Positions 40,563 to 56,780 of a DNA stretch of 60,232 nt are shown piece after piece (the first letter of the stretch is position 1; each line of letters opens with the position of its first letter). The translations under genes were made by a program, and so were the position numbers. Source of the DNA: a virus (Duplodnaviria > Caudoviricetes); the IMG/VR virus record IMGVR_UViG_3300044825_000282, positions 1 through 60,232 of that record. One strand, given 5' to 3'. The notes beneath the pieces were generated by a model. The model searched no databases and was not told where the DNA came from. It was given only the letters and a program-made list of their open reading frames with translations.

Positions 40563-40566
40563 GACA

Positions 40567-40878
40567 TCACCCGTAGATCACCATGATGGACGCAACGTCC
40601 GTCAGGTCAACGTAAAGGTTTGTCTCAACCAGAATGCCTTCACCCGGCATCGGAAGCCAGAAAGTTCCAGAAGCAGCGGCTGCTGGGGAGTTCATGGTCA
40701 TCAGGATAGGACCGCCGGAACCGCCATCTCGAAAGACGACAGAGCCAGCAGCAGCACCCGATACACCATAGACAGCCTTGATCCGACAACGAAGCAAGTC
40801 GTTGTCGTTCTGGTCTTTCATCTGCCCATCGGTAGTTCGCGGTTTTGACGCTAGTACGTCATATTGCATGGAAGCCAT
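40567..40878 (-). CDS. virion protein (putative capsid-associated)
   Basis: GGAGG RBS; PGEGIL motif; position. Confidence 0.65.
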   Translation of the reverse strand: MASMQYDVLASKPRTTDGQMKDQNDNDLLRCRIKAVYGVSGAAAGSVVFRDGGSGGPILMTMNSPAAAASGTFWLPMPGEGILVETNLYVDLTDVASIMVIYG

Positions 40879-40890
40879 GTCAGCCTCCTA

Positions 40891-41430
40891 TTACGAGTTC
40901 GCGAACGGCGTAGCAGGAGAGCCAGTGCAGACGATAACGCCATTGACCATGTACTTGTTGGTGGTCAACGAGGTGATGGTGATGCAAGTGCCGACCACAC
41001 CGCCAGTGTCAGAGCCGTTCAGATTGATGAAGTCGTTGGCGGCGGCGGGAATAAAGCCAGCCATTGCGCCAGACGTATCAGAGTCAATCGACAGAACCGA
41101 GCCAATGAACTTGTCAGTGCCGTTCGTGCCGATCTTGACCGAAGAGGTCGCAATCGTCGCGTCCACCCAAATGGTGAAGGTCGCACTTTGGTTGTTCTGG
41201 GTGTTGGGATCAGCGCCCGGGCCAGCCGCAGGGGCGTTTGCCGTGGTGTTGATTGCCGGGAGAGTGATCGTCAGGTTGGAGGCCAGAGTGCCACCCACCT
41301 TGAGAATCTTGCCAGCGTGTGCTGCCACCGTCAGGGTGGTGCTGGAGGTCAGAGAGACCACATTGCCTGCGCCCTGCGAATAGAAGCCATTCAGCGAGCG
41401 AACCGGGCCGTCGAGAGTAGTAATTGCCAT
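40891..41430 (-). CDS. capsid decoration/fibre-like protein (MAITTLDGPVRS...)
   Basis: GAAAGG RBS before ATG 41430; beta-rich; follows the capsid gene. Confidence 0.7.
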   Translation of the reverse strand: MAITTLDGPVRSLNGFYSQGAGNVVSLTSSTTLTVAAHAGKILKVGGTLASNLTITLPAINTTANAPAAGPGADPNTQNNQSATFTIWVDATIATSSVKIGTNGTDKFIGSVLSIDSDTSGAMAGFIPAAANDFINLNGSDTGGVVGTCITITSLTTNKYMVNGVIVCTGSPATPFANS

Positions 41431-41445
41431 GATCAACCTTTCGTG

Positions 41446-41517
41446 TTGTAGCACATCCTCTTATCGTCTCTACAAAGTCTGCTAGGTCAGTCGATAAGAG
41501 TCGGATTCCTAGATGTG
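41446..41517 (-). ncRNA. candidate double-pseudoknot cis-RNA
   Basis: four complementary pairs, two of them crossing, in 72 nt of intergenic DNA. Confidence 0.55.
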
Positions 41518-41538
41518 AACATCATACTGCGTTTAAAC

Positions 41539-41571
41539 AAAAAAGGGGAGGGTTTTACCCCCCCCCCTCTT
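41539..41571 (-). terminator. terminator after major capsid gene
   Basis: G-rich/C-rich stem followed by T6 on minus strand. Confidence 0.8.
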
Positions 41572-41573
41572 CT

Positions 41574-42482
41574 TTAAGCGCCGGGAGAGCCAAACACGCC
41601 CAGCGGGTCAGACCAGCCGAACGAGTAACGCTCACGAGCCTTGTAACGCACGTTGCCGGTATCGAAGTCGCCGTCCATCGAGGTGGCGAGCGGGGTACGG
41701 ACAAAGTGCTTCAGGCCGTTAGGCACATCAGTGGACAAGAACCATGCGTTGTTGTCGGTCAGGAAGTTATTGACGGTATAACCACCCGGGATCGACCCAT
41801 TGTTCTTGATTGCGTTGATGTCGTTGTTGTTGGTCGCGACACGGAGTTCGGTTTCCAACAGGCGGGTAGCCACGAACATCAGGCTCGGAGGAACAATCAG
41901 TTTGCGAGGCTTTGCAGCGATCAGCAAACCACGTTCGTCGGTCCACGCTGCGATCTGGATAACGGCGGCTTCCAGAGAAGTCTCGTTCAGATCGGCAGGG
42001 GTGGCAGGCTCGTTGGAGTTCGTTCCACCGGAGACCAGAGGGTGAGCAGTCGAGAACAGTTCGACACCATCGCCACCGGTATAGGTAGACGAGAAGCCGT
42101 TGTTCAGGATGTTCGCCGCTTTGACCTGCTTGGTGTACGACATCGCACGGGCCAGAGCCTTGGTGTAGCGAGCCGAGAGAGAGTCATAGAGGTTGTCCTC
42201 AATGGCTTCTTCCGTCAGGCTGAAACCAAGAGCAATGGTTTCGTGCTGGTAACGAGCAGTCCATGCTTCCTGCGCGTTGTCATAAGCGATGGCAGAGCCT
42301 TCGTTTTTGACCGGCGCGGCAGAGAAGCCCGACAGTTTGGTTTCTTCTTCGAACGAACGCTCAGAGGTTTCGGTTTCGAAAATCTCTTTGTGCTGTTCAC
42401 CGTAGGTTTCATACTCCAGACCGAACAATGCGTTCAGACCGGGCAGAAGTTCCTTAAGTAGTTGTGCGCGGGAGATAGCCAT
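41574..42482 (-). CDS. major capsid protein
   Basis: MAISRAQLLKELLPGLNALFG, EEAIEDNLY, DFDTGNVRYKARERYSFG; position after scaffold; terminator downstream. Confidence 0.9.
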   Translation of the reverse strand: MAISRAQLLKELLPGLNALFGLEYETYGEQHKEIFETETSERSFEEETKLSGFSAAPVKNEGSAIAYDNAQEAWTARYQHETIALGFSLTEEAIEDNLYDSLSARYTKALARAMSYTKQVKAANILNNGFSSTYTGGDGVELFSTAHPLVSGGTNSNEPATPADLNETSLEAAVIQIAAWTDERGLLIAAKPRKLIVPPSLMFVATRLLETELRVATNNNDINAIKNNGSIPGGYTVNNFLTDNNAWFLSTDVPNGLKHFVRTPLATSMDGDFDTGNVRYKARERYSFGWSDPLGVFGSPGA

Positions 42483-42485
42483 TTA

Positions 42486-43091
42486 TTAACTCCTTCCAGT
42501 TGCATTCTCATACAGGGAGATGCCGAAGTTAAATCGGACAATCACCTCTGTGTAAGAACCCGGATAGCCAGCAATGGCGGTCTCGGGGACAACGTCCACC
42601 ACGCGAATCGGGAGAGTGGTCTCCGTATCGGTCGTGTTCAGGACTGCGTTTTTGGAATTGCCATTGGTGGTGCTGCCAGTGTTTTGTACCAGCGACACGT
42701 TTTTGCCAACAGCAGCCTGAGTGAGGTAACCAATGGTAGTACCAGTGGAAACCACAGCGACTTTGTACAACTGATCGGGATCATCTTGTACATAAGCCTG
42801 AATACCCGCCACGTTCACAGCGCCGGGGTAGTATTGCTTGTACACCGGTTGCGAAGTGTTGGGGTCAACGTAGGTGCATCCGAGGAAAACACCAATGGTG
42901 GTCGCGGTAGCCGTGGTCTCAACCTTGGTGATGTTACCGCTGGCGTTCAACGTAACCACGTCGCCATAAAAAATGGCGGTGGTTTCGTTTTGACCAATCG
43001 GTAGTTCACGGGTTTGACCTGCGTACACCTGACCGCCCAGCAGGTTCACAGGAACCATGCCGTAGGGGGCAGAGACTTCAGGATAAGCCAT
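42486..43091 (-). CDS. minor capsid/cement protein
   Basis: IFYGDVV, GVFLGCTY, DDPDQLY motifs; directly upstream of the capsid gene. Confidence 0.7.
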   Translation of the reverse strand: MAYPEVSAPYGMVPVNLLGGQVYAGQTRELPIGQNETTAIFYGDVVTLNASGNITKVETTATATTIGVFLGCTYVDPNTSQPVYKQYYPGAVNVAGIQAYVQDDPDQLYKVAVVSTGTTIGYLTQAAVGKNVSLVQNTGSTTNGNSKNAVLNTTDTETTLPIRVVDVVPETAIAGYPGSYTEVIVRFNFGISLYENATGRS

Positions 43092-43101
43092 GTCTTACTC
43101 C

Positions 43102-43536
43102 TTATGCCCGTCTACCTCTGCTCATGGTCGATTTACGTTCGCTGAACAGTGGCATCCGAGGATCGTTTTCTTTCATCAGATTGGCATCTACGGCTCGCGT
43201 TTGGGCATCTGTCTGATTGCGCACATATTCTGTACGCTGCTCGACGAATTCCTCCGGCGTTTTGCAGAGAACCAATCCACCAATCTCGACAAGGCCAGTG
43301 GTCTTGCCGGGATATTGCAGTTCTGAGTGATCTTCCCGTTTGACCGGAACCCATCCCTCATCCTGCTTGGACATCATGTTGCGGTCATCCGCTTGCCCCA
43401 GAATCGATTTACGAATCCAGCGGTACGAATAACCTTCTTCCCTATTCGGGTTCGGCAAAAGCGAAGGCGGTGTCCAAGCCTTTTTCCTAATGCCTTGTTC
43501 GCGAGTCTCTTGATCTCGTGGGGTGCGATCAGCCAT
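43102..43536 (-). CDS. conserved head-module protein
   Basis: WTPPSLLP..GYSYRWIR..EGWVPV..IGGLVLCK. Confidence 0.75.
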   Translation of the reverse strand: MADRTPRDQETREQGIRKKAWTPPSLLPNPNREEGYSYRWIRKSILGQADDRNMMSKQDEGWVPVKREDHSELQYPGKTTGLVEIGGLVLCKTPEEFVEQRTEYVRNQTDAQTRAVDANLMKENDPRMPLFSERKSTMSRGRRA

Positions 43537-44416
43537 TTGTCATCTCCTTTGCGACTTGTTCAGCGTATTTTTCCAAGGGCACTCCAAGTCGCTTTGCAAT
43601 GGCGACCTGAGTTTTGGTCAGGGTGATCTTCTTTGATCCCGCTGCGCCTCTGGAGGCAGGAGCGACAACGTTCGCGGCAGGTTTTGAAGACCTGAATTTC
43701 TGTGGGAATGAATCCCGAATGCGAGCATCGAGTTGCTCGAAATAGGCGTCCGATCCGGCGACATATCCACTCTGGACGAGTTGATCGTGGATACCAAAGG
43801 CAGCACCTCTCATAACTGGGTCTTCGTCAAACCAACGGTTTTCCGTTACCCACTGACGGGTGCGTTCGTCAGGAACAACTTGAGGTTGTTGTCTAGTTTC
43901 TACTGGAATTTCTGGCTGTTGTAAAGGGGCTTGGTATCGATGTTGATAATTGTCGATTTCCCTTTTGCCAACAACCGACTCCGCGAGTTTCTTCTGGGCG
44001 GCGATCATCTTCTCGGTGTCGCCCGCCTCATAAGCCTCCTTGTACTCACGCTCTGCCTGAGAAAGGATGGCCTCATGCTTTTCTTTGCTGGTCTCAACCA
44101 ACACCCGCTCGCCCTGAGACAGTCGCTCCTGAAGCATCCGGTTTTGCTCTGCCACGCGCTGGGCGTAGGTCAGGGCTTCCTGCTGCTCGCGGGCAAGACG
44201 CTCTTTCTCGCGGCGCTCCTCGTGGTAACCGGCGCGGAGTTGGCGAATGCGCTTTTGGACGTTCTCGGAATACTGCGAGATTTCGTCGTCGGTGACCTCG
44301 ATAGTGCCCTTCGGTTCGGGTTTACCCCTATCCGGTGCTGGCGTATCGTCTACGATCTCGATCTGGGCATCGCCCTCGATCTCAATCTCGACATTTGGGT
44401 TGTTGTTCTCAGACAT
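43529..44416 (-). CDS. capsid scaffolding protein
   Basis: acidic N-terminus, long coiled coil, C-terminal IAKRLGVPLEKYA. Confidence 0.75.
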   Translation of the reverse strand: MSENNNPNVEIEIEGDAQIEIVDDTPAPDRGKPEPKGTIEVTDDEISQYSENVQKRIRQLRAGYHEERREKERLAREQQEALTYAQRVAEQNRMLQERLSQGERVLVETSKEKHEAILSQAEREYKEAYEAGDTEKMIAAQKKLAESVVGKREIDNYQHRYQAPLQQPEIPVETRQQPQVVPDERTRQWVTENRWFDEDPVMRGAAFGIHDQLVQSGYVAGSDAYFEQLDARIRDSFPQKFRSSKPAANVVAPASRGAAGSKKITLTKTQVAIAKRLGVPLEKYAEQVAKEMTNG

Positions 44417-44425
44417 GAATGCTCC

Positions 44426-44779
44426 TTATAGGCGGGTGACTACCCGGGGATCGGCAACGACAGCCTCAACGGTGTCGTCGTTTATGAGGCGAAACTCTTG
44501 ATCACCCTCGGGGGTGGTGATCTTGAATCTCGTTCCAGAGTACGACCGCATGATGATGTAGTCGCCCTCTTTGCACCAAGGCCCGTCCGGGAACTTGTCC
44601 GGGTCTTGATAGGCTTGCGGACCCAGTTTCACAACTAAGCCCACGATAGACGCGATCTCTTCCTTCTGACGGACAGATTCAGCGATCACGATTTTCGAAT
44701 CCTTGAAGGTCTCCTCCTTCTTCGGAATCGCAATAAGAATGCGGTAGCCCTGCGGCTCCGGTAGTTCCAGTTTACTCAT
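44426..44779 (-). CDS. groES: GroES-like co-chaperonin
   Basis: PQGYRILI, VVKLGPQAY, PWCKEGD, RYSG-like segment, RLINDDTV. Confidence 0.85.
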   Translation of the reverse strand: MSKLELPEPQGYRILIAIPKKEETFKDSKIVIAESVRQKEEIASIVGLVVKLGPQAYQDPDKFPDGPWCKEGDYIIMRSYSGTRFKITTPEGDQEFRLINDDTVEAVVADPRVVTRL

Positions 44780-44942
44780 CAGGTAAGTCCTCAATTATTC
44801 TTATGAGACGTTGAAAAGCGCGGATTTGGCCCACTACCTCGCGGTAGGTGGCGTAGTCCTCGACAGGGTTGAAGGCGATACTTTCCTTCAACGATTCCTG
44901 TTCTTTCTGGAGTTCACTGAGGAGGTAGTCCCTTAGTGCCAA
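44772..44942 (-). CDS. hypothetical protein (56 aa, TTG start; not in ORF track)
   Basis: AGGAG RBS; DYATYREVVGQI; fills the gap between portal and groES. Confidence 0.7.
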   Translation of the reverse strand: MALRDYLLSELQKEQESLKESIAFNPVEDYATYREVVGQIRAFQRLIRIIEDLPDE

Positions 44943-47304
44943 GGTTGGCTCCTATCTTTAGACCCTCAATGCTCTGCTTCGAATCGATGGTCTTGTCCAA
45001 GTCCATCGTCTTCGCTCCAATTTGCGCCCCTGCGATGCGTTCCATCGAGGCGATGCGCTCGCGTTCGCGCTGATCTTTGGTGGTGAGGTCTGCCACCCGA
45101 AGTTGCACGTCCGCTTCGTCTTTTGCTTTCTTGCGCAGAAGTTCTGCTTCTTTGATTTCCAACTCGCGCTGCTGGTTCTGGATCACCGGGTCTTTCGCTG
45201 CTTCTTGCGCAGCCTTTTGAGCAGCCTCTGCCTGATCTTTCGCCAGCAGTTTTTCGGATGCCGCAGCCACGGCGCGGGACAGTTCGACTTCGATGTCCTC
45301 GGGCAGTTGTTCGTCCGGGGGAGGAAGCGCCACACCCAGCATCTTCTCGATCTCGACGCGATACTGGAAGCCAACGTGTTCGTTGATGTGCGCCATCATC
45401 GCAGCCTGAATGAACTGAGCGCGAGGGTTCTGACCTACGATCTGCTGAATCTTCGGGTCGTTCATCGCGTTCATGTGAACCTTGATGTGCGCCTCGTGAT
45501 CCTGATACAGGAATGCTTTGACCGGTTTTCCAGCGATGACTGCCATGTTTTCCGAGACTGGGTTCATGGGCTTTTGGTCATCTTCAATTGGAATGATCTT
45601 GGCAACGTTCTTGATCCCCAAGACTTCCAGCATCTGACGGTGCAGTTGCGGCAGGTCGTAAATCTGGGGAGCGCCTTGCGCAAGTTGCAGTGCGGCTTGG
45701 TACTGCACCACGCGCTGGGCCATCGTCGAAGCGTTCGGGTCAGACACGGGGATGATGTCCACCATGTCGTAGTCGGTCTTCTTGGCTTTCTTCGGTGCGT
45801 CTACTTCGTAAGAGTAGGTGTCGGGCGTGTAGTCGCGGACGATGCCAGCAATGAGTTTAAACTCGTGCTTCATTGCGGCGTGGACACGCGCCTGCACCGC
45901 ACTCATAACCTTGAGGGTGCGCTCCAGAATCGCAAGCGTTGTACCCACTGGCGCTTGGTTAGACATATCGCCAACCTTCAGGTCTGCCACGGAAGCAAAC
46001 TTGCGGCCCTCTTCAACGATGGTGTTGAGCAGGTTGTACAGTGTGGCGCTCGGCTCTTTGTACGGCAGCGGGACAATCGAGTCCTTGATTGTCATGCCGG
46101 TCACGTCCACGTCACGCCATTCGCCCGGAGCAATCGGAGTGTCGTCGCCCTTGACGCGCAAATCTTTGGACTTGAAACCCCCGGGGAGGTTTGACAGAGT
46201 GCCCGAGTCAACAAGTTGACGGAGGATAGATGTCGCACTCTTTGCAAAACCACCAACGAGGTGAATCAAGCCAAAGCCGTAGAAACCAAAACCGGGGATG
46301 TAGATGTAGTGCGTGAAGTGCATCCGCTTTTGGCGAGTCTCATCGTCTTCAAGGTAGTTGCGACGAATGGACAGCACTTCCCCGGTTGAGGAAATTGTGA
46401 TGACGTAAGGAAGAGCGATACCGTCCGGGTCTTCATACCCCGGCAGGTCGTAGTCCACATGGACTTCGTAGAGCATATAGCGGTCATCGTCAACGATGTT
46501 GACACCCGCCTCTTCGTCCTTCTTCTTCTGAATCTCAGTGATGTTGCGCTGCGGCTCGGTCAGTTCGATGTCCCGATAAAAACCAGCGACTTGGAGTTTC
46601 TTGATCTGGTTCTCGGTCTTGCGCATCCGGTGCGTGACGCGAGGCGAAGACTGTAGGTCTGATGCGCCGTAGGGGACGATGATGTCCTCTGCCGGTATAA
46701 ACATCGCGACCTGACGGTTGATGCTGGGATCGAAGTAGACCTTCTTGAATGCGCTGCCCGTGATCGGCAGGTTCCACAGAAGGCGCTCGTGTTCGTTGCG
46801 GTACTCAACCATGACCTCAGTGAGTTCATAGTTCATGTCATCCTGCACACGCGCTGCGGCTTCTTCCTTCTCGCGGGTGATCTTGCCAATGATCTTGGTT
46901 TTGACTGGCCCCGATGCAGGGAAGGTCTCAAGGATGGTTTCAGACTGGAACTTGACGACAGACTCTGACAGGATGGGGTGGTAGACACCACAGGCTCCAT
47001 CCCAAGGCTCGGTGCGCTCATCGATGCGCAGACCCAGCAGGTCCAGACCTTCCTTGTAGGTGCGCTCCCAGTCTTTGCGGGAGGTTATGTCGTCTTGAAT
47101 GAATTGAAGAAGTTCCTCGGCGATCAGTTGAAGGTCTCCCTCCGACATTTTCTCGGCAAGGTTTTCATCGAAGGACGGCAAGGTCACCTCGATTTCTACC
47201 GCAGGCTCGTCGCCACCCTCCATCTCGATTTCAATCTCGACCTCTGGGGTGACTTGTGCTTCGACTTCAATGCCTGTCGGAAGCGAATACAGTGATTTTT
47301 CCAT
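44914..47304 (-). CDS. portal protein
   Basis: 796 aa directly after TerL; GSAFKKVYFD, GFYGFGLIH, coiled-coil C-terminal barrel. Confidence 0.9.
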   Translation of the reverse strand: MEKSLYSLPTGIEVEAQVTPEVEIEIEMEGGDEPAVEIEVTLPSFDENLAEKMSEGDLQLIAEELLQFIQDDITSRKDWERTYKEGLDLLGLRIDERTEPWDGACGVYHPILSESVVKFQSETILETFPASGPVKTKIIGKITREKEEAAARVQDDMNYELTEVMVEYRNEHERLLWNLPITGSAFKKVYFDPSINRQVAMFIPAEDIIVPYGASDLQSSPRVTHRMRKTENQIKKLQVAGFYRDIELTEPQRNITEIQKKKDEEAGVNIVDDDRYMLYEVHVDYDLPGYEDPDGIALPYVITISSTGEVLSIRRNYLEDDETRQKRMHFTHYIYIPGFGFYGFGLIHLVGGFAKSATSILRQLVDSGTLSNLPGGFKSKDLRVKGDDTPIAPGEWRDVDVTGMTIKDSIVPLPYKEPSATLYNLLNTIVEEGRKFASVADLKVGDMSNQAPVGTTLAILERTLKVMSAVQARVHAAMKHEFKLIAGIVRDYTPDTYSYEVDAPKKAKKTDYDMVDIIPVSDPNASTMAQRVVQYQAALQLAQGAPQIYDLPQLHRQMLEVLGIKNVAKIIPIEDDQKPMNPVSENMAVIAGKPVKAFLYQDHEAHIKVHMNAMNDPKIQQIVGQNPRAQFIQAAMMAHINEHVGFQYRVEIEKMLGVALPPPDEQLPEDIEVELSRAVAAASEKLLAKDQAEAAQKAAQEAAKDPVIQNQQRELEIKEAELLRKKAKDEADVQLRVADLTTKDQRERERIASMERIAGAQIGAKTMDLDKTIDSKQSIEGLKIGANLGTKGLPPQ

Positions 47305-47312
47305 AGCAGTCC

Positions 47313-48815
47313 TCAGTAATATGCCGCCTTGCGGGGCATAAACGAACCCTCAACTTCGTCTGAGTCAAGTTGGATAAAGCCACCCTGCCTGAAGCGAAGC
47401 AATGCTTGGGTCGTTGAGTCCACCAAGTCATCGTGGTCGCCGTTAGGAAATGAGGCGAGTTCCTCCACCAATTCATCAGCCCAGCGCGTTTCGGGTCTCC
47501 AAACCATGCCCGACGCAAAAAGATCAGACACGGCGTTTACACGGGCTATCTTATCTGACCCTTTGCTCGGTGTGTACTCCGCGATGGGGATGCCCATCCT
47601 TCTCATTTCGTAGATGAGTGGCGCTCCAGCCGCCTTTTTCTCCACAATGAGCGTGTCTGGGTTCCACTCTTTCCAGAATTCGAAGGCGGTTCTTTTGAGT
47701 TCGGGGAACTCCATGCGCTCTTTAAACGCATCCAGAACAATGATGTTGGCGACTTCGTTTCCTTCGACATCGCGATAGAACACTCCCCATGTGGTACAGG
47801 CCGAGTAGTCAGCCCTGTTGCTCTTTTCGAAAGCCGTATCCCACGACTGGATGATGTAATCGACCTGCGGAGGACGTTCTCCCTCCCAAATCTTCCACAT
47901 CTCCCGCTTGATGATGGCCCCTTCTTCGGAGGTGGGGTTCTGCTGGTACTGTGCTTCCCACTTTCCCACGGGGAGTTCGGCCTTGATGGCTTCCAATTCC
48001 TCTTGCCGCCAGAATTCTTGCCATAGGGGTTTACCCGAAGGCAGCAAAGCGGGCAGTTCGATGACCTCCCAGTCCTCCAAATCCTTCTTGGCGGCAGCAT
48101 TGAGAATCTGACCGGTCAAATCGCGCTTGGACCAGCGGGTCATGACGATCACAATCGCCCCTCCCGGCTGTAAACGCTGACGTGGACCGGAGGAATACCA
48201 CTCATAGACCCGGTCATACACTGCCGGATTGCCTTGCATGGCCTCTTGTTCGCTGTGCGGGTCGTCAATGATCAGCACATCCGCGCCTTTACCGGTCACT
48301 GCACCCCCAACACCGATGGCGAAGTAGTCGCCGCCCTTGGAAGTGTTCCACCGACCGGCGGCTTTCGAGTCTGCCGACATCTTGGTGGGGAAAATCTCTT
48401 GGTAGTCGGGCGATCCGACCAGATTTCGCACCTTTCGACCGAAACCGACCGCCAATTCAGCGGTGTGGGCGGTCTGAATGATCTTCTTTTCGGGGAACAT
48501 ACCCAGAAACCACGCCGGAAACAGGTAGGAGGCGAACTCCGACTTGGTGTGCCGGGGTGGCATATTGATGATCAGGCGTTTTAACTCACCCCGAGCCACC
48601 CGCTCAAAGGCATCTGCCATGATTTGGTGGTGTTTTCCGGGGATGAAGGCCGACCACATCTGCCGCACGAAGGGCATGAAGTTCTGTCGGCAGCGTTCGC
48701 GCTTGTCTGCTTGCAGCAGGGTGTTGATTTTCTCGATCTCGGGAGAGCCTTCTGGCAGCGTATCGAGCAGTGCCAGATATTGCTTGACCTCTTCCCGGGT
48801 GAGTAGATCGCTCAT
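47313..48815 (-). CDS. terL: terminase large subunit
   Basis: PPRHTKSE Walker A, LIIDDPH Walker B, VMTRW, SWDTA and HDDLVDS nuclease motifs. Confidence 0.95.
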   Translation of the reverse strand: MSDLLTREEVKQYLALLDTLPEGSPEIEKINTLLQADKRERCRQNFMPFVRQMWSAFIPGKHHQIMADAFERVARGELKRLIINMPPRHTKSEFASYLFPAWFLGMFPEKKIIQTAHTAELAVGFGRKVRNLVGSPDYQEIFPTKMSADSKAAGRWNTSKGGDYFAIGVGGAVTGKGADVLIIDDPHSEQEAMQGNPAVYDRVYEWYSSGPRQRLQPGGAIVIVMTRWSKRDLTGQILNAAAKKDLEDWEVIELPALLPSGKPLWQEFWRQEELEAIKAELPVGKWEAQYQQNPTSEEGAIIKREMWKIWEGERPPQVDYIIQSWDTAFEKSNRADYSACTTWGVFYRDVEGNEVANIIVLDAFKERMEFPELKRTAFEFWKEWNPDTLIVEKKAAGAPLIYEMRRMGIPIAEYTPSKGSDKIARVNAVSDLFASGMVWRPETRWADELVEELASFPNGDHDDLVDSTTQALLRFRQGGFIQLDSDEVEGSFMPRKAAYY

Positions 48816-49042
48816 AGAGTCAGCATCTTCTCAACGGAGCGGTCGCGCAGTTTCATGGTGCGCACCTTATGGGGAGTGGTTACCAGCAGCCCCTTTTCCT
48901 CAAGGCTGTGGATAATCCTGTGGATATTTGAGCGCGACTTCAGTCCCATCCCCGAGGCGATGTCCTGCATAGAAGGCGCGAATCCCTTCATTTTGATGTA
49001 GGTCTGGATAAATTCCAGAACCGCTCGCTGGCGCTCAGTCAC
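48812..49042 (-). CDS. LexA-type winged-HTH protein, DNA-binding domain only
   Basis: MTERQ..VLEFI..G.APS..DIA..GLKSRSNIHRII.SLEEKG; 76 aa, no S24 peptidase domain. Confidence 0.88.
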   Translation of the reverse strand: MTERQRAVLEFIQTYIKMKGFAPSMQDIASGMGLKSRSNIHRIIHSLEEKGLLVTTPHKVRTMKLRDRSVEKMLTL

Positions 49043-49072
49043 ATCCGCTCCTCGGTTTAAACGATTAAGCGG

Positions 49073-49101
49073 AGTTTAAACACGAACAAGCGTTCGTGCA
49101 A
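49073..49101 (-). promoter_or_regulatory. sigma70 promoter with palindromic operator CACGAAC-N4-GTTCGTG
   Basis: TTGCAC-N17-TAAACT; operator 49081-49098 fills the spacer; GTTTAAAC at 49074 and 49055. Confidence 0.8.
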
Positions 49102-49118
49102 GTGTTTTTTTGGAAACG

Positions 49119-50081
49119 TTACTTGAACTGCTGCGCGAACTGGAGCAGATGGGGGTGGCGGTCGAGTTCGCCTTGGTCGTACAGGTTGGCTGTTTCAATG
49201 CAGCGCATCAGGAAAAGGTCTTGCTCGGACAGCGGCGAACCGTCCTTCAAGTCGTCCGGCCTATTTAAACGCGCAAACAAGCGAACGATCCGATCTACTT
49301 CATCCCCGAAGGAATCCTTGACTAAGGTGCTTTCCCACGGGAGACAAGCATCTTTGTAGGCGTTCGTGCCGAAGACGGAGTGAAGTCCCCCTGCCACCGC
49401 GAGGATGTCTCCGATTCCTACCGACTTCATGAGGTGAAAGACCCGAAGCAGATGGTCAGCCAGACTGCCGCCCTTGTGGGGCTTTTGGTGTGCGCCGATG
49501 TTGAGCAGAAATGCCTTGAGGAGGATTTCCGATGTGTAGGCTTCCTTGGGATCGATGGCGAACTTGAACATCAAGGTCAGCCGTGCCTTGTTGCAGATGC
49601 GACTGACGGGCTTGGCACAGTGCGGAATCGCGCCCGGGAAGACCACAAGTCTGCCGATCTTGGGGATGACGCTCAATAGGACTGCCGAGCGGTCGTGGTT
49701 GTAGAAAGAGGTCTCTCCACCCCAGTTCGCGTCCCACTCCCGGTTCATGTAGATGACGCAGGTCTGGTCTTCTGCCCGGTCAGTGTCGGTGTGTATGTAG
49801 CCCTCGGTCCCGAAGGTGTGCTGGTTTGCGTAGCAACGAACGAGCGTTGCCCCGGGAAACTCGGCGAGGAGTTTCTTCCAGACGTAGCGGAAAGGCTTGG
49901 GCAATCTGGAAGAGACATCTACGGTGTTTTTGACTCCACCGCGACCGATGTCTACGTTCCAGTGCCCAAAAGAAATGTCCTTGTCGGACTTCCAGCCATA
50001 CGTCCACGGCGCTTTGTGCAGCCAGTCGATGCAGGGCTGGAGTTCCTCTGGGGAGAGGATGTCCTCACGAACAAAGATCAT
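49119..50081 (-). CDS. 2OG-Fe(II) oxygenase fused to an HD-like (DUF6817-like) domain
   Basis: HTD..WGGET..PHCA..RLTL; C-terminal H.GGSLADHL..AGGLHSVFGT. Confidence 0.8.
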   Translation of the reverse strand: MIFVREDILSPEELQPCIDWLHKAPWTYGWKSDKDISFGHWNVDIGRGGVKNTVDVSSRLPKPFRYVWKKLLAEFPGATLVRCYANQHTFGTEGYIHTDTDRAEDQTCVIYMNREWDANWGGETSFYNHDRSAVLLSVIPKIGRLVVFPGAIPHCAKPVSRICNKARLTLMFKFAIDPKEAYTSEILLKAFLLNIGAHQKPHKGGSLADHLLRVFHLMKSVGIGDILAVAGGLHSVFGTNAYKDACLPWESTLVKDSFGDEVDRIVRLFARLNRPDDLKDGSPLSEQDLFLMRCIETANLYDQGELDRHPHLLQFAQQFK

Positions 50082-50287
50082 GCAAGGTCGAGGTCCGATT
50101 GTTCGGGGGCTTTGTAGTTCTCGATCTTGATGCCCATCTCCATCGCGTTGACGAGGTCATCTTGAGTCGCCACGCGCACGGTCAGCAGTTGATTGGCTGC
50201 GTGAGAGAGGGCTTGCTGGCGCACGGTAGCACGAACAAGACGGACACCGTTAGGTGTGCCTACGAGGTAGATACGGGTTTGGGCCAT
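50078..50287 (-). CDS. hypothetical protein (MAQTRIYLV...)
   Basis: AAGGA RBS; RLVRA..QALSHAA motif. Confidence 0.7.
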   Translation of the reverse strand: MAQTRIYLVGTPNGVRLVRATVRQQALSHAANQLLTVRVATQDDLVNAMEMGIKIENYKAPEQSDLDLA

Positions 50288-50322
50288 TTGCAGTTCCTTC
50301 AGGCTTGTTTTTTGTGCCCTCA

Positions 50323-50351
50323 ATGATACTGCGAACGTTCGTGCTTGTCAT
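50323..50351 (-). promoter_or_regulatory. sigma70-like promoter with CGAACGTTCG palindrome in the spacer
   Basis: ATGACA-N17-TATCAT. Confidence 0.65.
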
Positions 50352-50830
50352 GTGCTTTTTGCATCTTTCTGGACGATAGGGCGCATCTTCTTGGCGCGGT
50401 ATTCTTTTTCGACCAGATTGATGGCTTGGTCCAAATCCTTGACTGTGATTACTTCCAGTTGCGCGTCATGCAACTCGCAGATGACGTTCAGGGCGTTCAT
50501 CTCATCTGCCTTCAGGATGAAGCGGTTGGTGTCTTTCCCCCGGACTGCCACCGCATGGAGGGCATCCAGACCGTTCTTGACTTCTTCGGCATACTCCTTA
50601 CCGAACCCCAGCCGGTACAGGGCTTCGACAATGTTGACCATGCTGATCAAGGTGTCGATGTCTTGCCGGGTGGCTTTGCCCTGAGTCAGGTTGGACAGGG
50701 CGAGATGGTTTCTGATCTTCAGGTTCAGGGCGTGGGAGCCATGCGAGCGGACCGGCTCCATGCCTTCCAAGACGTAGCCAATTGGGTTTTGCAGGATTGG
50801 TTTGGGGCGGTACTTACTTCTCTTGCGCAT
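50348..50830 (-). CDS. hypothetical phage protein
   Basis: 160-aa ORF MRKRSKYRPK... Confidence 0.75.
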   Translation of the reverse strand: MRKRSKYRPKPILQNPIGYVLEGMEPVRSHGSHALNLKIRNHLALSNLTQGKATRQDIDTLISMVNIVEALYRLGFGKEYAEEVKNGLDALHAVAVRGKDTNRFILKADEMNALNVICELHDAQLEVITVKDLDQAINLVEKEYRAKKMRPIVQKDAKST

Positions 50831-50948
50831 ATTTCAGGTAGACGTACAGCGCCAGTGCGAGAACTGCCATCATGAGACCGGCCCCCATCAGGACCAACCC
50901 AACCTCGGAGAGCAGGATGCCAAGTTCGTACCACTGAAAATTAGTCAT
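50814..50948 (-). CDS. small membrane protein (44 aa, MTNFQWYE...; not in ORF track)
   Basis: GGAGGC RBS; single long hydrophobic helix. Confidence 0.6.
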   Translation of the reverse strand: MTNFQWYELGILLSEVGLVLMGAGLMMAVLALALYVYLKYAQEK

Positions 50949-51165
50949 TGTCTCTGCCTCCATTCATGGTCCAGTCTTCTGCCCTTTTGACCATGAACAA
51001 GCCCTCTGCCCGGGTCATCCGAGAGGATCGCACAAAAAGGTCGCCGTCCTGATCGTAGCCAATGATCATCACGTCAGTCAGGTCTGCCTTCAGCGCGGAG
51101 TTCAATGCTTGCTCGGCGCTGTAGTTGGTGCTGGCGGGCAGATCAATTACCTTGTTGTTGTTCAC
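50941..51165 (-). CDS. hypothetical protein
   Basis: DVMIIGYDQDGDL motif; operon packing. Confidence 0.65.
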   Translation of the reverse strand: MNNNKVIDLPASTNYSAEQALNSALKADLTDVMIIGYDQDGDLFVRSSRMTRAEGLFMVKRAEDWTMNGGRDND

Positions 51166-51427
51166 TTCTCGCCCTTACAAATTGTTCGATGTGCCACAGG
51201 GCAAGATCGTACCCCTCCGAGAACATCGGGTGTCGGTCTTCCTCGTTGCCGGTCAGTGCTTCAAGAGTGTCCAGCAGTGCTTGCCGGTCGGCTGCGGTGA
51301 TCAAATCAGCAAAGGCTTTCAAGTCCTCCGGGCAGGTGAAGAGCCAGTAGTTCTTGCCCATCAGGGGTCTGAACTCTTCCAGTGCCCCAGCCTCTTGAGC
51401 CATGCGGATGATGCTGTCTTGAGTCAT
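51143..51427 (-). CDS. hypothetical protein
   Basis: IIRMAQEAG..FADLI; ATGA coupling. Confidence 0.7.
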   Translation of the reverse strand: MTQDSIIRMAQEAGALEEFRPLMGKNYWLFTCPEDLKAFADLITAADRQALLDTLEALTGNEEDRHPMFSEGYDLALWHIEQFVRARSEQQQGN

Positions 51428-51609
51428 GCGTTGTAGTCCTGACTTGATCCCTCAAGGGTAACGCGCCAGACGATGAAGTTCTGTTCTTTGCTGCGGTCGA
51501 TCAGCCACTCCTGAAACTGCTTGATCAAAAGGTCATTCTGCAACGGTGTAAACGATGCCACCTTGGCGGTGAACTGGATGTCTTGTGTCACTGCTTGTAC
51601 GCTGCTCAT
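51424..51609 (-). CDS. hypothetical protein (MSSVQAV...)
   Basis: AAGGAG RBS; ATGA coupling. Confidence 0.65.
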   Translation of the reverse strand: MSSVQAVTQDIQFTAKVASFTPLQNDLLIKQFQEWLIDRSKEQNFIVWRVTLEGSSQDYNA

Positions 51610-51974
51610 GTGTTCTTCTCCTTCAGTTTGGCTTCGATGGCGCGGGCGAACTCCCACCAATCATCGTCCTTCACAAATTCAGGATGCACAGGCGGCGCGT
51701 GCTTTAATTCCAACATCTCAAGTTCATCATCCGTCAGCCCCACCCACTCGCGGCGCGGCGTGTGCCACGGCTCCCATCCGCAGTCAGGCCCGCGCTTCAT
51801 CCTGCGCTCAACAAGTACGTTGTCCTTGTAGATTTCTTCCCACTGCCAAACATCCTGCTCCGGCTGCGCCAGCCTCTCGCGCAGGGCGGTGATGAGTATT
51901 CTGGTGGTGTTCGCATCCACCGGCACGATGGCTCCGGGTTGCAGCCACTGCTTCACAAGTTCTTGCTCAGTCAT
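51606..51974 (-). CDS. hypothetical protein (MTEQELV...)
   Basis: WVGLTDDE..FARAIEAKLKEKN motif common in proteobacterial phages. Confidence 0.7.
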   Translation of the reverse strand: MTEQELVKQWLQPGAIVPVDANTTRILITALRERLAQPEQDVWQWEEIYKDNVLVERRMKRGPDCGWEPWHTPRREWVGLTDDELEMLELKHAPPVHPEFVKDDDWWEFARAIEAKLKEKNT

Positions 51975-52150
51975 TTCTCTGCCCCATGAATCCACTTCCT
52001 CGGTGGGTAAGCCATGCCTCCAAGGAAGGCTGCTGCCAGCATCCACCAGCCGCTGTGATCAAGCACGAACACTGCATACCCGGCTCCCCCGAAGATCAGC
52101 CCCTCCCAGAGGATGATGTAGATCAGGTACGTCCAGTAGGCACTGCTCAT
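51971..52150 (-). CDS. small membrane protein (MSSAYW...)
   Basis: two hydrophobic segments; ATGA coupling. Confidence 0.65.
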   Translation of the reverse strand: MSSAYWTYLIYIILWEGLIFGGAGYAVFVLDHSGWWMLAAAFLGGMAYPPRKWIHGAEK

Positions 52151-52485
52151 ACCATCACCCTTTCTGGTGTCCGAATGTCCCAGCCTATGGGCCTCCACAG
52201 GTGCAGACAGTTCGGGTGGTTGTTCACATACTCTGCCTTGGGCGGGTGGAACTGGACCACACAGTCCTCATCGTCCCAAAACAGGTCTTTGATCTGGCAC
52301 ATCTCGTCCCAAGTCGGGACTCGGTCCTTCCGGCTGACACTGACGTGTTCCCAGCCGCCCCCTGCCGAAGCAATGACCCGGACCATCTGGTTGTGCTTCA
52401 GGGTGACGATAAACGCCCCACAGGTCTCATCTCCCGGTGGGTAGCCATCAAGGTGTATCCGAAATTTTTCAGGCATTTTGAACAT
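52147..52485 (-). CDS. conserved phage protein (MFKMPEK...)
   Basis: GWEHVSVS..PTWDEMC.IKDLF..YVNNHPNCLHLW. Confidence 0.8.
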   Translation of the reverse strand: MFKMPEKFRIHLDGYPPGDETCGAFIVTLKHNQMVRVIASAGGGWEHVSVSRKDRVPTWDEMCQIKDLFWDDEDCVVQFHPPKAEYVNNHPNCLHLWRPIGWDIRTPERVMV

Positions 52486-52519
52486 CGCAACTCCATGCTT
52501 GCCTTTTGTGTAGGAGTCA

Positions 52520-52548
52520 ATGATAGTGCGAACGTGTGTTCGCATCAA
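52520..52548 (-). promoter_or_regulatory. sigma70 promoter with operator TGCGAAC-N4-GTTCGCA
   Basis: TTGATG-N17-TATCAT; palindrome at 52527-52544. Confidence 0.75.
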
Positions 52549-52797
52549 GTATTTTTATGCAAAGTACCCCCCGGGGGTGACGAAATGTAAACGCTGGATG
52601 TTTATACAGAAGTTAGGGGGTTTAGCCTGACCCGATAACTCTCTAGAAAGGGGTGGGGGGTGCGAACGTCTGCACTCCGTGCAGATACAGCCTGTCGGCT
52701 TTCTGGTGTGTATATGCGAACGTTCGTATTGGAAAGGGGAAGTGGTGGAATGTGTGGATTAGAGCGTATAGGGTGGAGGGGTGGCCTTGCGCGTACA

Positions 52798-52828
52798 GGG
52801 GGGTCGGGGGCGGGTGGGGGTCGCGGGG
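52798..52828 (+). other. G-quadruplex-capable G-tract cluster in non-coding DNA
   Basis: G6-TC-G5-C-G3-T-G5-TCGC-G4. Confidence 0.7.
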
Positions 52829-52957
52829 AGGCCCACATAACGAGCCATGCCCCCATCGCACCGGCATAACGGAGCAGTCAGCGCCGCTCTGATCTGCACT
52901 CACGCGCCCAGCGCCACGCACTGCATGAGCACTGCCCCTCCCCCAGCACTGCCTAGG

Positions 52958-53599
52958 TTAGGCACTGCGTTTCTCAGTCTGCTTAACACTCTCAAGCACA
53001 CGGAGATGCCCACGCAGTTCGTCCTTCAGTTGCTGGACATTCACCTGCTGGACCTTCTGGTCCACATTGTCAGTGAACATTGCCACCGCTCTGCCCATGA
53101 GTTCCAGCGCCTTGAGTTCTGCCGACTCGGTCTTGGCGTTGAGCACCCTGTCGTGTAAACGCTCCATCACGAATCGACGGGTCTTGACTGCGTCTTCGAT
53201 CACCTTTTCTTTGAGCGCCTCATCGAGAGACCCCAGAAGCGCAGTGATCCTCGCATCCTTCAGGAGTTTGTTCGCATTGGCAATGATCGATGCATCGTTC
53301 TCTGTTCGTGAGTTGTACGCCGAGCGATACGCTTCCACCTTGGTCTTCCCTGACAGGATGGCGTTGACGAACAACTGCATCTGAGGCGTGAGTCTTCTTC
53401 CCTTCTGTTCTACGGGAACTCCCCACACCTTGCCTGTCTTTGTCTTCTTCTCTCGTATCTTTGCCACTGCCGCCTGTACGCCTTCGGCAGGGTTCCCCGG
53501 CTCGTTCGTGCTTGCGTGAGGATCGTCCTCGGTGATCGCATCACTCTCCAGCAGTTCGATCAGTTTGTCTCGCTTGGTCATTCGTGCCCCTTTCAACAC
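52958..53599 (-). CDS. terminase small subunit-like protein
   Basis: LTPQMQLFV..GKTKVEAYRSAY..ANKLLKDARI..KALELMGR..MFTD pattern; true start may be ATG 53581. Confidence 0.75.
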   Translation of the reverse strand: MLKGARMTKRDKLIELLESDAITEDDPHASTNEPGNPAEGVQAAVAKIREKKTKTGKVWGVPVEQKGRRLTPQMQLFVNAILSGKTKVEAYRSAYNSRTENDASIIANANKLLKDARITALLGSLDEALKEKVIEDAVKTRRFVMERLHDRVLNAKTESAELKALELMGRAVAMFTDNVDQKVQQVNVQQLKDELRGHLRVLESVKQTEKRSA

Positions 53600-53890
53600 T
53601 CAAACACCCGTTCGTGCTCTCATTCGCACTCGGGTTCATGCAACCAACCTTCGCTTCGTTTACACGGCCTGTCAAGAGTTGTTCGCGCCTCTGGCATCCC
53701 CAAGCACTCCCTCTGGCTACCCAAAGCACCTGCCCTGCACTCCCTGACGGTCTTCCCTCTGGTCTCCCTCTGACGCATCCGACTGCCGCCCTTCGGGCAT
53801 CTGGACCCGGCTTGGAACAACCCCACGGATTAGTCGGGATTGGTTCTCCCTCGTGGATTCCCCTCTGTAGACCGATGCTTGCACGGGGGG

Positions 53891-53919
53891 TTGCGTTCGT
53901 GCTTGTATCCGTTTAAACT
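53891..53919 (+). promoter_or_regulatory. sigma70 promoter of the early arm; -10 lies within GTTTAAACT, GTTCGTG half-site at -35
   Basis: TTGCGT-N17-TAAACT. Confidence 0.6.
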
Positions 53920-54007
53920 TGCGTTTCGTTGGACGGCTTTGATGAGTGACTCGCAACCACTCTATGCCCGAGCAGGACAGCCGGTGAGGTACACGGCTTC
54001 CGACTGG

Positions 54008-54122
54008 TCACCCACCTACACACTCAGGGGACCGACAGGAAGCAACCAGCCCTCATCACCTAGTGAGACACCTACCACGGTGCAAGCACCTCTCACGCTC
54101 ACCCACCTACACCTTCAGGGGA
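54008..54122 (+). repeat. 24-bp imperfect direct repeat TCACCCACCTACAC-NN-TCAGGGGA (54008 and 54099)
   Basis: 22/24 identical by eye. Confidence 0.75.
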
Positions 54123-54286
54123 GCAAGCACAGTGCAACGCACCGCGCCTGACCGGCGCACAGATGGCAAGGCTCTCACCCCATGCATCGCCCTCGTGGAT
54201 AAGGGCGGCAAGGGATTTCCCTTCAAGCACATTCGCTGAGTGTGCTTGTGGATGCAATCCCGCATCACTCACCGGAGGCTATCACC

Positions 54287-54484
54287 ATGAACACATTCGA
54301 CGCTGTAGGCATTGCAGAGGGCTGGATCGAGGCCGACTCGCAGGAGCAACTCATCGAGGCTTGGCAACTGCTCGTTGACACCGGCCTGTGCTGGCAACTG
54401 CAAGGCTGGTTCGGACGCACTGCCCAGCACCTCATTGCAGAGGGTGTCATCTCCCCTGCCAACCGTTCAACTCAGGAGGCTTGA
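54287..54484 (+). CDS. conserved small phage protein (MNTFDAVG...)
   Basis: GGAGGCT RBS; [20 protein letters not shown] motif. Confidence 0.8.
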
Positions 54485-54487
54485 ATC

Positions 54488-54718
54488 ATGACCATCCGCA
54501 ACACTGACGCTTTCATCCTGTCCTGCTTCGCAGAGGACGTTCGTGCCATCCCCGATCTGCACAAGCAGACGATCCCCGCAGGACAGATGCTGGTGGACAT
54601 CGCCAGCCGCTACCTCACCCGACTCACCAACGCTGGTCACTCCAGCGCGGACGCCCTCTCCCTGCTCAACGCAGTGGTGAACGACATCCGCTCCAACCAT
54701 GCAACTCAGGAGGCTTAA
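54488..54718 (+). CDS. hypothetical protein
   Basis: AGGAGG RBS. Confidence 0.75.
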   Translation: MTIRNTDAFILSCFAEDVRAIPDLHKQTIPAGQMLVDIASRYLTRLTNAGHSSADALSLLNAVVNDIRSNHATQEA

Positions 54719-54721
54719 ACA

Positions 54722-55288
54722 ATGCACACCAACCGTGAAGAGTGGCTCAACGCCGCCGTCGAGGAACTCCGTCCGATCTTCGACTCGATCAACTACGCCC
54801 TGCCGGATCGCATTCGTGTGACCTGCGGATTCCCCTCCAGCCGTGCCCGTGCGAACAACGCCTTCATCGGTGAGCACTGGTCCCCTGCGGCATCGAACGA
54901 CAACCACCACGAGATTCTGATCTCGCCTGTCGTTGACGATCCCCTGCAAGTGTTCGCCACGCTGGTCCACGAACTGGCCCACGCCGCCACTGACGGTGAC
55001 GGTCACGGCAAGCGGTTCACCAAGTGCGTCCGCTCCCTCTGGCTGGAAGGCAAGCCCACCGCCACGGTGGCGGGTGACACCTTCAAGCAGAACTTCGCCA
55101 ACCTGCTCCAGTCGCTCGGCGCTTACCCCCATGCCCGTTTAAACATCGAGGCAGTGCGGAAGAAGCAAAGCACCCGGATGCTCAAGGCTTGCTGCCCGTC
55201 CTGCGGGTACACCGTTCGCCTGTCTCAGTATTGGGCGAACCAAGGGCTACCTACCTGCCCGAATGATCGCAACACCCTGTCCCTGTAA
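54722..55288 (+). CDS. SprT-like zinc metalloprotease
   Basis: TLVHELAH..GHGKRF; C-terminal CPSCGY..C Zn ribbon. Confidence 0.85.
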   Translation: MHTNREEWLNAAVEELRPIFDSINYALPDRIRVTCGFPSSRARANNAFIGEHWSPAASNDNHHEILISPVVDDPLQVFATLVHELAHAATDGDGHGKRFTKCVRSLWLEGKPTATVAGDTFKQNFANLLQSLGAYPHARLNIEAVRKKQSTRMLKACCPSCGYTVRLSQYWANQGLPTCPNDRNTLSL

Positions 55289-55309
55289 CACTTCATCGGA
55301 GGCTAAACC

Positions 55310-56770: not shown

Positions 56771-56780
56771 CGGAGGCATC

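Follow-up and report, generated by a model that had tools for sequence, protein, structure and literature searches.

A LexA DNA-binding head coupled to terL, and the GAAC/GTTC boxes it may read, in freshwater relatives of HTVC023P-type phages

Introduction

A truncated LexA homolog, gp6, is encoded by the Bacillus phage GIL01, where it is reported to bind a palindrome centered at -43.5, overlapping the -35 element of the late promoter P3, and to activate the late genes (PMC6182141). The LexA protein of Bacillus binds CGAAC-N4-GTTCG, which is also the SOS box of Staphylococcus aureus (PMC9578287), and that of alphaproteobacteria such as Caulobacter binds GTTC-N7-GTTC (PMC8565304, PMC9578287). 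Our literature search for experimentally studied stand-alone LexA heads surfaced GIL01 gp6 only. Here, we describe a stand-alone LexA head, termed mini-LexA, in a tailed phage represented by IMG/VR record IMGVR_UViG_3300044825_000282 (the whole record, positions 1..60,232, a free-standing viral contig classed as linear, with an estimated completeness of 97%; hereafter the window). The mini-LexA gene overlaps terL, and boxes built from a GAAC/GTTC core recur in and beside predicted promoters of this phage and its relatives. Based on the position and conservation of these boxes, we consider it probable that mini-LexA is a phage transcription factor of the GIL01 gp6 type that reads them.

Results

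Mini-LexA is a LexA DNA-binding head

The mini-LexA gene (48812..49042, minus strand) encodes 76 amino acids (aa). Its start codon is GTG, with GGAG placed 5 nt before it. A sequence-only reading of the window, made without database searches, had described the product as a LexA N-domain without the autocleavage/dimerization domain, and profile searches agree. Pfam LexA_DNA_bind (PF01726) matches residues 1-62 (E=1e-17; 64.1 bits against a cut-off of 23.7), while the peptidase S24 domain is absent from the eight Pfam families listed for the protein, which stops at residue 76. There is no Ala-Gly cleavage site in the last 10 residues, and the alignment to LexA chains ends at about residue 66. 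A word-index search returned no longer, full-length homologs, which is weak evidence. An AlphaFold2 model (33-sequence alignment; mean pLDDT, the model's own confidence score, 78) has a winged helix-turn-helix made of three helices and a two-stranded wing, the DNA-binding winged-helix domain occupying residues 1-65. An extra C-terminal helix of lower confidence (residues 67-75, pLDDT about 55) is formed by the 9 residues after the wing. The top Foldseek matches are the E. coli LexA-DNA complexes 3jsp and 3jso (TMq 0.79-0.80, root-mean-square deviation 1.3-1.4 Å over 65-66 columns); MntR/DtxR-type regulators come next, aligned over 72-75 columns as against 65-66 for the LexA chains. Mini-LexA is the LexA DNA-binding head alone, without the protease/dimerization domain, and because that domain is missing, monomer-like and RecA-insensitive behavior would be reasonable to expect.

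The recognition helix of mini-LexA, LKSRSNIHRIIHSLEEKG, aligns with LKSKSGIHRLI..LEERG of LexA from Rhodospirillaceae, Pelagibacteraceae and Maricaulis, in keeping with the alphaproteobacterial likeness noticed earlier from the letters alone. The profile of the mini-LexA family scores 52.0, 50.5 and 40.5 bits against three alphaproteobacterial LexA N-domains, compared with 44.4 for Solirubrobacterales, 43.9 for Limnocylindrales, 39.5 and 31.0 for two Planctomycetes and 24.8 for Burkholderiaceae; the last, a single LexA sequence sampled from a metagenome-assembled genome (MAG), carries a different, E. coli-like helix. Overall identity between mini-LexA and the three alphaproteobacterial N-domains is only 20-25 of 66 residues. 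Since the helix is of the alphaproteobacterial kind and alphaproteobacterial LexA binds GTTC-N7-GTTC, it is reasonable to suppose that mini-LexA reads a GAAC/GTTC core.

Palindromic boxes occupy predicted promoters upstream of mini-LexA

Four exact palindromes of the CGAAC half-site are present in the window: CGAAC-N4-GTTCG at 49083 and 52529, which extend to the full palindromes CACGAACaagcGTTCGTG (49081-49098) and TGCGAACgtgtGTTCGCA (52527-52544), and the spacer-less (N0) form CGAACGTTCG at 50332 and 52717. Shuffled sequences hold a mean of 0.06 exact N4 palindromes (0 of 100 shuffles reach the observed two) and 0.13 exact N0 palindromes (1 of 100 reaches two). All four are intergenic, although only 5.4% of the window is, and all lie within 3.7 kb upstream of the mini-LexA gene.

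Three of the four palindromes fall inside the -35/-10 spacers of predicted sigma-70-like promoters, all on the minus strand. Box A (CACGAAC-N4-GTTCGTG, 49081..49098) fills the spacer of promoter A, mini-LexA's own (49073..49101; -35 TTGCAC at 49101-49096, 17-nt spacer, -10 TAAACT at 49078-49073), as had been proposed in the sequence-only reading. The hexamers of promoter A were read by eye and are below the scan threshold; its architecture recurs in relatives. Promoter B (50323..50351; ATGACA-N17-TATCAT, 10 of 12 matches) stands upstream of a small open reading frame (ORF) and a 2OG-Fe(II) oxygenase gene and has box B (CGAACGTTCG, 50332..50341) in its spacer. Promoter C (52520..52548; TTGATG-N17-TATCAT), upstream of a DUF7694 gene, has its spacer filled by box C (TGCGAAC-N4-GTTCGCA, 52527..52544). 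A scan for sigma-70-like promoters over 48700-54400 gave only two sites, 50351-50323 and 52548-52520, and both hold boxes. Judged from the predicted hexamers, box A would be centered at about -23.5 and box B at about -20.5, and all three boxes near -20 to -24, a repressor-type position.

The fourth palindrome, box D (CGAACGTTCG, 52717..52726), lies within a non-coding element, ATCCACACAT...CCAATA-CGAACGTTC, downstream of terS. Six whole genomes were compared, and five of them share this element at the same place; G008, the remaining one, has GAAC-N4-GTTC there. The surrounding non-coding stretch (52498-52957, 460 nt) also contains C-run/G-run hairpins followed by TATATA, and could be a regulatory region or a packaging site.

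Single half-sites had likewise been put forward as promoter signals, and the window does not bear this out. Because the pentamer CGAAC/GTTCG occurs 214 times, lone copies are uninformative by themselves; 16 are intergenic against 11.6 expected, and 8 of these 16 belong to the four palindromes. One half-site that had been listed as promoter-associated, at about 3655, is within the RusA ORF. With one mismatch allowed, the counts are at or near chance (N0, 4 against 3.04 expected; N4, 7 against 2.91; direct N6, 11 against 5.87), and therefore exact boxes and the comparison with relatives were used as the basis of what follows.

The gene is coupled to terL throughout the family

Mini-LexA and terL (47313..48815, minus strand; phrog_38, E=1.1e-109) overlap by ATGA at 48812-48815, as first read from the sequence: the mini-LexA stop codon TGA (48814-48812) shares bases with the terL ATG (48815-48813). 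A terL scan of viral contigs gave at least 78 loci with terL identities of 74-95%, 640 kb in all, and in 68 of the 78 mini-LexA is directly upstream of terL. Among the other ten, nine of which leave no room upstream by their coordinates, eight begin inside terL and one (L031), by its coordinates, has only 246 nt upstream; in the last (L052), again by coordinates, mini-LexA would fall off the contig end if the locus shares the terL insertion of its kin. That insertion is a side observation: in L044, L050, L051 and L069 the match is limited to terL residues 218-500, at a distance of about 1.55 kb rather than 0.65 kb from the mini-LexA stop, coordinates that suggest an insertion of about 0.9 kb, such as an intron, an intein or a homing-endonuclease gene.

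Across the family, mini-LexA identity falls to 39%, and the recognition helix, (K/R)S(K/R)SNIHR, is near-invariant. The C-terminal tail D(K/R)S(V/A)..(M/V)..L is conserved as well, with D67 and L76 nearly or fully invariant; some members stop at 66 aa and do not have it. Beyond this clade, the LexA-domain protein gp13 of mycobacteriophage Wildcat is not adjacent to the terminase of that phage; LexA domains and terminase genes are therefore not linked as a rule.

Could mini-LexA, then, be a packaging accessory made one-to-one with TerL, which recognizes box D when packaging is initiated and contacts TerL through its C-terminal helix? The adjacency to terL, mostly by overlap, in 68 of 68 loci that hold mini-LexA, the conservation of the C-terminal helix and the place of box D in a conserved block next to terS (5 of 6 whole genomes, with the GAAC-N4-GTTC variant in the sixth) all speak for it, and small terminases often use a winged helix. 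However, mini-LexA matches no terminase-small family in Pfam or PHROGs (its best PHROG, phrog_3502, has no assigned function), and a separate terS homolog (phrog_51) is kept in relatives with and without mini-LexA. Those members of the family that end at 66 aa have no tail with which to make such a contact, and most of the boxes, namely those in promoter spacers and beside -35 elements, would be left unexplained. We regard this role as decidedly unlikely.

Box geometries are conserved across relatives

The 640 kb of related loci provide the comparative support for mini-LexA as a regulator that reads the boxes. Inverted CGAAC-Nx-GTTCG occurs 16 times with N0 and 9 times with N4, and at most once at any other spacing from 0 to 12; direct CGAAC-Nx-CGAAC occurs 13 times with N6 and at most 4 times elsewhere; the everted control geometry occurs at most twice at any spacing. 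At least one exact paired box is present in 28 of 68 loci (38 boxes), compared with 2 loci for the control geometries and a shuffle mean of 1.78 loci, and counted by protein cluster (at least 75% identity, single linkage) in 14 of 29. The N4 spacers differ (GTCT, GATT, GGTT, TGAT, ATAG) and the arms are constant. Three lineages (L020, L021 and L034) have three CGAAC copies phased 11 bp apart. Others have the N0 palindrome between the hexamers of TTGCGA-N17-TAAACT, or else shortly ahead of the mini-LexA gene, within its 5' leader. Taken together, these counts suggest that the box geometries are strongly selected across the family, and they uphold the earlier proposal that one half-site is used in several geometries.

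Gene and boxes also go together. For eight terL relatives of greater distance, hmmsearch (E<=1) returned no mini-LexA homolog, and these phages have a single paired box in about 85 kb.

Palindromes of this sort could also act as RNA or DNA hairpins, that is as terminators, attenuators or processing sites. Boxes A and C do score as terminator-like stems on the plus strand, and in several relatives the 5' leader of the mini-LexA gene contains a C-run/G-run hairpin with the N0 palindrome in its loop. Yet no T-run follows on the minus strand, which carries the genes here; the arms are invariant while loops and flanks vary, with no compensatory change; and neither direct repeats, the 11-bp triplets included, nor lone half-sites at a fixed distance from a -35 can pair. 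Hairpins in place of protein operators are therefore highly improbable.

Half-sites adjoin the -35 of the predicted terS and candidate small-RNA promoters

A second arrangement, this time consistent with an activator reading the boxes, is seen before the terS homolog (52958..53599, minus strand; phrog_51, E=2.3e-12), the first gene of the long operon, which has homologs in G006-G010. Its predicted promoter (53647..53685, minus strand) has CGAAC at 53685-53681, 5 nt, the -35 hexamer TTGACA at 53675-53670 and a weak -10, GAAGGT, at 53652-53647; the spacer holds GTGTAAAC at 53665-53658. Among 37 distinct 150-nt regions upstream of terS, the window included, there are 18 in which a sense CGAAC precedes a -35-like hexamer (TTGACA, TTGCAA or TTTACT, for example) by 3-6 nt, compared with a mean of 0.12 and a maximum of 2 in shuffles. 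The sense word is present in 23 of the 37 and the antisense word in 5. In some lineages two or three phased direct repeats occupy the same place, with centers near -42, -53 and -64. The single CGAAC of the window would, from the predicted hexamers, be centered at about -43, an activator-type position. A looser count, of half-sites next to a -35-like hexamer anywhere in a locus, was dropped as uninformative, since 9 of its 10 matches in the window are inside genes.

Boxes also adjoin the predicted promoter (3142..3188, minus strand; -35 TTGACA at 3169-3164, N16, -10 GAGAAT at 3147-3142) of a candidate small RNA of about 80 nt (3054-3169, minus strand) that ends in the terminator hairpin GGAGCGA...TCGCTCC followed by a T-run. 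The direct repeat GTTCG-N6-GTTC (3188-3174, minus strand) is 4 nt upstream of the -35, and a second, GAAC-N7-GAAC (3127..3141, minus strand), begins right after the -10. The promoter, terminator and upstream GTTC-N7-GTTC box are conserved in the close relatives L159-L162, in which the box has a variable spacer; L163 and L164 keep a single GTTC. The downstream box is found in the window alone among the 14 relatives, of 80, whose downstream region was inspected. Of the single half-sites noticed earlier, those at the terS promoter and at 3174-3188 gain support only through the relatives, and the list drawn up from the window is not enriched. The proposal of a regulon stands for the box-bearing promoters, mini-LexA's own included; for the control of recombination and early genes, the evidence is the one conserved box (3174-3188) before the candidate small RNA.

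The reader of these boxes could instead be the LexA of the host, tying phage promoters to the SOS response as in GIL01, whose promoters are reported to be under host LexA control (PMC6182141), with mini-LexA doing something else, such as competing with or displacing LexA. The box types equal known SOS boxes, CGAAC-N4-GTTCG of B. subtilis and S. aureus and GTTC-N7-GTTC of Caulobacter and other alphaproteobacteria, and of the latter the window has 8 copies where 2.56 would be expected, a number that 1 of 100 shuffles reaches, two of the copies flanking one promoter. Moreover, the nearest cultured relatives by terL infect an alphaproteobacterium, Pelagibacter. On the other hand, inverted N0, inverted N4 and direct N7 boxes together fit no single known LexA type, and neither the boxes nor the mini-LexA helix change among relatives whose GC content spans 40-56% and whose hosts probably differ. 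The eight relatives without mini-LexA are also nearly box-free, with one paired box in about 85 kb. An Rfam RNA described below (RF02932) hints at a betaproteobacterial host, and the one LexA sampled there has an E. coli-like helix, while the CTGT-N8-ACAG box is found 0 times in the window against 1.17 expected. Reading by host LexA thus seems unlikely to us, and we retain mini-LexA as the favored reader.

A dispersed octamer accompanies the family

The octamer GTTTAAAC occurs 29 times in the window (at positions including 516, 3074, 24027, 41531, 49055, 49074 and 53911) against 0.56 expected from base composition, about 50-fold over-representation; five relatives have 16-43 copies. No other 8-mer is as common in the family: the 640 kb contain 383 sites, and 77 of the 78 loci have one or more. 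Five whole phages outside the clade are limited to 0-3 copies. The copy at 3074 is in the loop of a terminator-like hairpin.

One could imagine that this octamer is the true target of mini-LexA and that the CGAAC boxes belong to another factor. Besides its over-representation in the window and relatives and its scarcity in the five whole phages that lack the mini-LexA family, the terS promoter spacer contains the octamer or a one-base variant in 14 of the 37 relatives, and the stretch from box A to the mini-LexA start has two copies. The sites, however, behave unlike operators: they have no flanking context beyond Y..R, and 19 of the 29 window copies are inside genes. In addition, the recognition helix matches those of LexA proteins that are reported to read GTTC, not GTTT (PMC8565304). 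A SprT-like gene (54722..55288) co-occurs with the octamer just as well as mini-LexA does in the genomes checked, and since a scan with this gene returned only 9 close relatives, the two are not separable as candidate readers. An octamer-directed mini-LexA is, in our view, very unlikely, and the GAAC/GTTC boxes remain its preferred target.

Context of the phage and neighboring observations

PHROGs and Pfam scans of the window proteins identify a tailed phage, with a GC content of 55.6%. Its long minus-strand operon runs from the terS homolog (52958..53599) through terL, portal, GroES, head, tail-fiber, endolysin and ejection genes to a 3045-aa protein, and further genes encode a primase/helicase, RusA, an exonuclease, Erf, a tyrosine recombinase and a Ref-like nuclease. 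By terL, the nearest isolated phages share 52-59% identity with it: 023Pt_psg01, the Pelagibacter phages HTVC027P and HTVC023P, and DSL-LC04. A megablast comparison of 46000-54000 with isolated phages gave no match. The stretch is present in freshwater metagenomes, and no RNA data set is listed among the sequencing runs that contain it. The Ref-like, RecA-dependent nuclease (9369-9713, plus strand; PF16786, E=6.6e-15) is thus encoded in the same phage as a LexA head, and it has homologs in G006, G007 and G009.

An Rfam Betaproteobacteria-1 RNA (RF02932) matches at full length at 2871-2986 on the minus strand (76.9 bits against a gathering score of 49.4), and its sequence is also visible downstream of RusA in relatives L159, L160 and L163. 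This RNA is the sole hint as to the host and possibly points to a betaproteobacterium. None of 401 Burkholderiales genomes searched for terL contained a close prophage; a 1.9-kb MAG contig was the one close match and gave no clue to the host. The MAG labels of contigs with close terL matches (Saprospiraceae, Burkholderiaceae) were rejected as unreliable host assignments, these contigs being only 1.5-1.9 kb long.

Between terS and mini-LexA, 49119-52548 encodes the DUF7694 protein, 160-aa and 81-aa ORFs, and the 2OG-Fe(II) oxygenase fused to DUF6817. None of these genes has a tblastn match in the five whole relatives G006-G010, and the gap between terS and mini-LexA is only about 0.5 kb in G006 and G007. 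This part of the operon is, by comparison, a variable insert, two sub-units of which begin with the box-bearing predicted promoters B and C. On the other side of terS, upstream of its promoter, 53700-53800 (minus strand) contains repeated CCAGAGGGA-like words, and the corresponding place in lineages L061, L067, L070, L073-L075 and L079 has several TGTGGATAA words resembling DnaA boxes; this region may be a replication origin.

Discussion

The domain identity of mini-LexA, its coupling to terL, and the positions and conservation of the boxes are directly established by these analyses; that mini-LexA is the reader of the boxes, the sign of its regulation and its oligomeric state are what we infer from them. 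In the scheme we favor, mini-LexA would read a GAAC/GTTC-core half-site, usually CGAAC. At the terS promoter, one site in the window and two or three 11-bp-phased sites in some relatives, just upstream of the -35, would allow activation in the manner of gp6, and at the three internal promoters, mini-LexA's own included, a palindrome filling the spacer would lead to repression and autoregulation. Translational coupling to terL would fix the dose of mini-LexA to that of the packaging enzyme. The observations of the sequence-only reading proved right apart from the lone half-sites, and its interpretation is right in part: a phage regulator using several geometries is well supported by the comparative data.

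Several points weigh against this scheme. The half-site centers of the N0 palindrome are about 4 bp apart, and therefore two winged helices could not bind both halves of CGAACGTTCG at once; a single molecule may bind there in either orientation, or the recognition unit may differ from that assumed. Exact paired boxes are missing from 40 of the 68 loci and from the whole relatives G006 and G007, in which the homologous places show nothing but degenerate GAACGTT(T/C). The co-occurrence of gene and boxes is phylogenetically confounded, both being common to one clade, and the promoter hexamers and transcription starts are predicted. Moreover, an activator encoded inside the operon that it activates makes an odd circuit. 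Finally, the boxes could be read by some other conserved protein that has no recognizable DNA-binding domain. Among the 49 proteins scanned with Pfam, which are mostly outside the structural module (most structural proteins were scanned with PHROGs only), no further helix-turn-helix protein was recognized, and the genes between terS and mini-LexA are absent from G006, G007, G009 and G010 and so cannot encode a conserved reader.

It is tempting to carry the scheme further. A LexA head kept in a fixed ratio with the packaging ATPase might act as a monomer or loose oligomer and recognize a single 5-bp half-site in any of four geometries: inverted with N0, inverted with N4, directly repeated with 11-bp phasing, or lone beside a -35. 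Position alone would then activate the terS/late promoter and silence the internal ones, mini-LexA's own among them. Since its recognition helix is of the alphaproteobacterial LexA type, in alphaproteobacterial hosts it might also occupy SOS boxes as a LexA that cannot be cleaved, and so dampen the SOS response during infection. As a whole, we hold this extended version to be improbable, and the clamp on the host SOS regulon that had been suggested earlier found no support here.

Stand-alone LexA heads are very common in sequence data and almost unstudied. The family profile matches 14,360 cluster representatives at E<=0.001, and of the best 150 of these, 42 are at most 90 aa long, 74 are 91-140 aa, 14 are 141-179 aa and 20 are at least 180 aa, so that 116 do not exceed 140 aa. 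Four representatives (P0074, P0079, P0081 and P0085; 156-312 aa) carry two tandem LexA-type winged-helix domains per chain, as natural "pseudo-dimers". In the searchable text of two pelagiphage papers (PMC9599517 and bioRxiv 10.1101/2019.12.14.876532), a term search found no mention of LexA or promoters. A truncated LexA in one Bacillus phage was already known, and what is new is the translational coupling to terL, the alphaproteobacterial type of half-site, and the mixture of activator-type and repressor-type positions. The mini-LexA family provides a second, independent case of a stand-alone LexA head, in abundant freshwater relatives of HTVC023P-type pelagiphages. Its putative natural operator variants, with one half-site in four geometries and two types of position, would allow one to ask how a LexA head works without its dimerization domain, and the strict coupling to terL may link the timing of transcription to packaging.

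How does mini-LexA compare with the systems it most resembles? With TerS it shares small size, putative DNA binding and a gene directly upstream of, and translationally coupled to, terL; unlike TerS, it has no TerS family match or oligomerization core, and a separate TerS homolog is encoded 4 kb upstream. As a stand-alone DNA-binding head of comparable length, it is reminiscent of the N-terminal fragment that LexA leaves after RecA-stimulated cleavage, but mini-LexA is a gene product with its own conserved C-terminal helix and not a degradation intermediate. Alphaproteobacterial LexA has the same fold, a very similar recognition helix, the same GTTC/GAAC core and direct repeats of the equal 11-bp phase seen in the mini-LexA family; it differs in having the S24 protease/dimerization domain and cleavage site that mini-LexA is without, and in that the putative mini-LexA sites also include inverted N0, inverted N4 and lone half-sites.

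The closest parallel is with GIL01 gp6 and its betatectivirus homologs, which, like mini-LexA, are phage-encoded and consist essentially of the LexA winged-helix domain only. Bacillus phage Sato gp08 (66 aa), annotated as "LexA family transcriptional regulator" and a possible gp6 ortholog, is 38.5% identical to mini-LexA over 65 aa. No gp7-like partner or host LexA boxes were identified in the phage described here. GIL01 is a Bacillus tectivirus, whereas ours is a tailed, HTVC023P-like freshwater phage, and the gp6 half-site is GaCACA as opposed to CGAAC. In addition, several geometries are found here, with most sites at repressor-type positions, including one in mini-LexA's own promoter, and mini-LexA is translationally coupled to terL. 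Nevertheless, both genes stand just ahead of late/packaging genes, and the site that abuts the -35 of the late promoter at -43.5 in GIL01 has a candidate counterpart here, at about -43 from the predicted hexamers. The GIL01 precedent suggests that activation by mini-LexA at the packaging/late promoter is as likely as repression.

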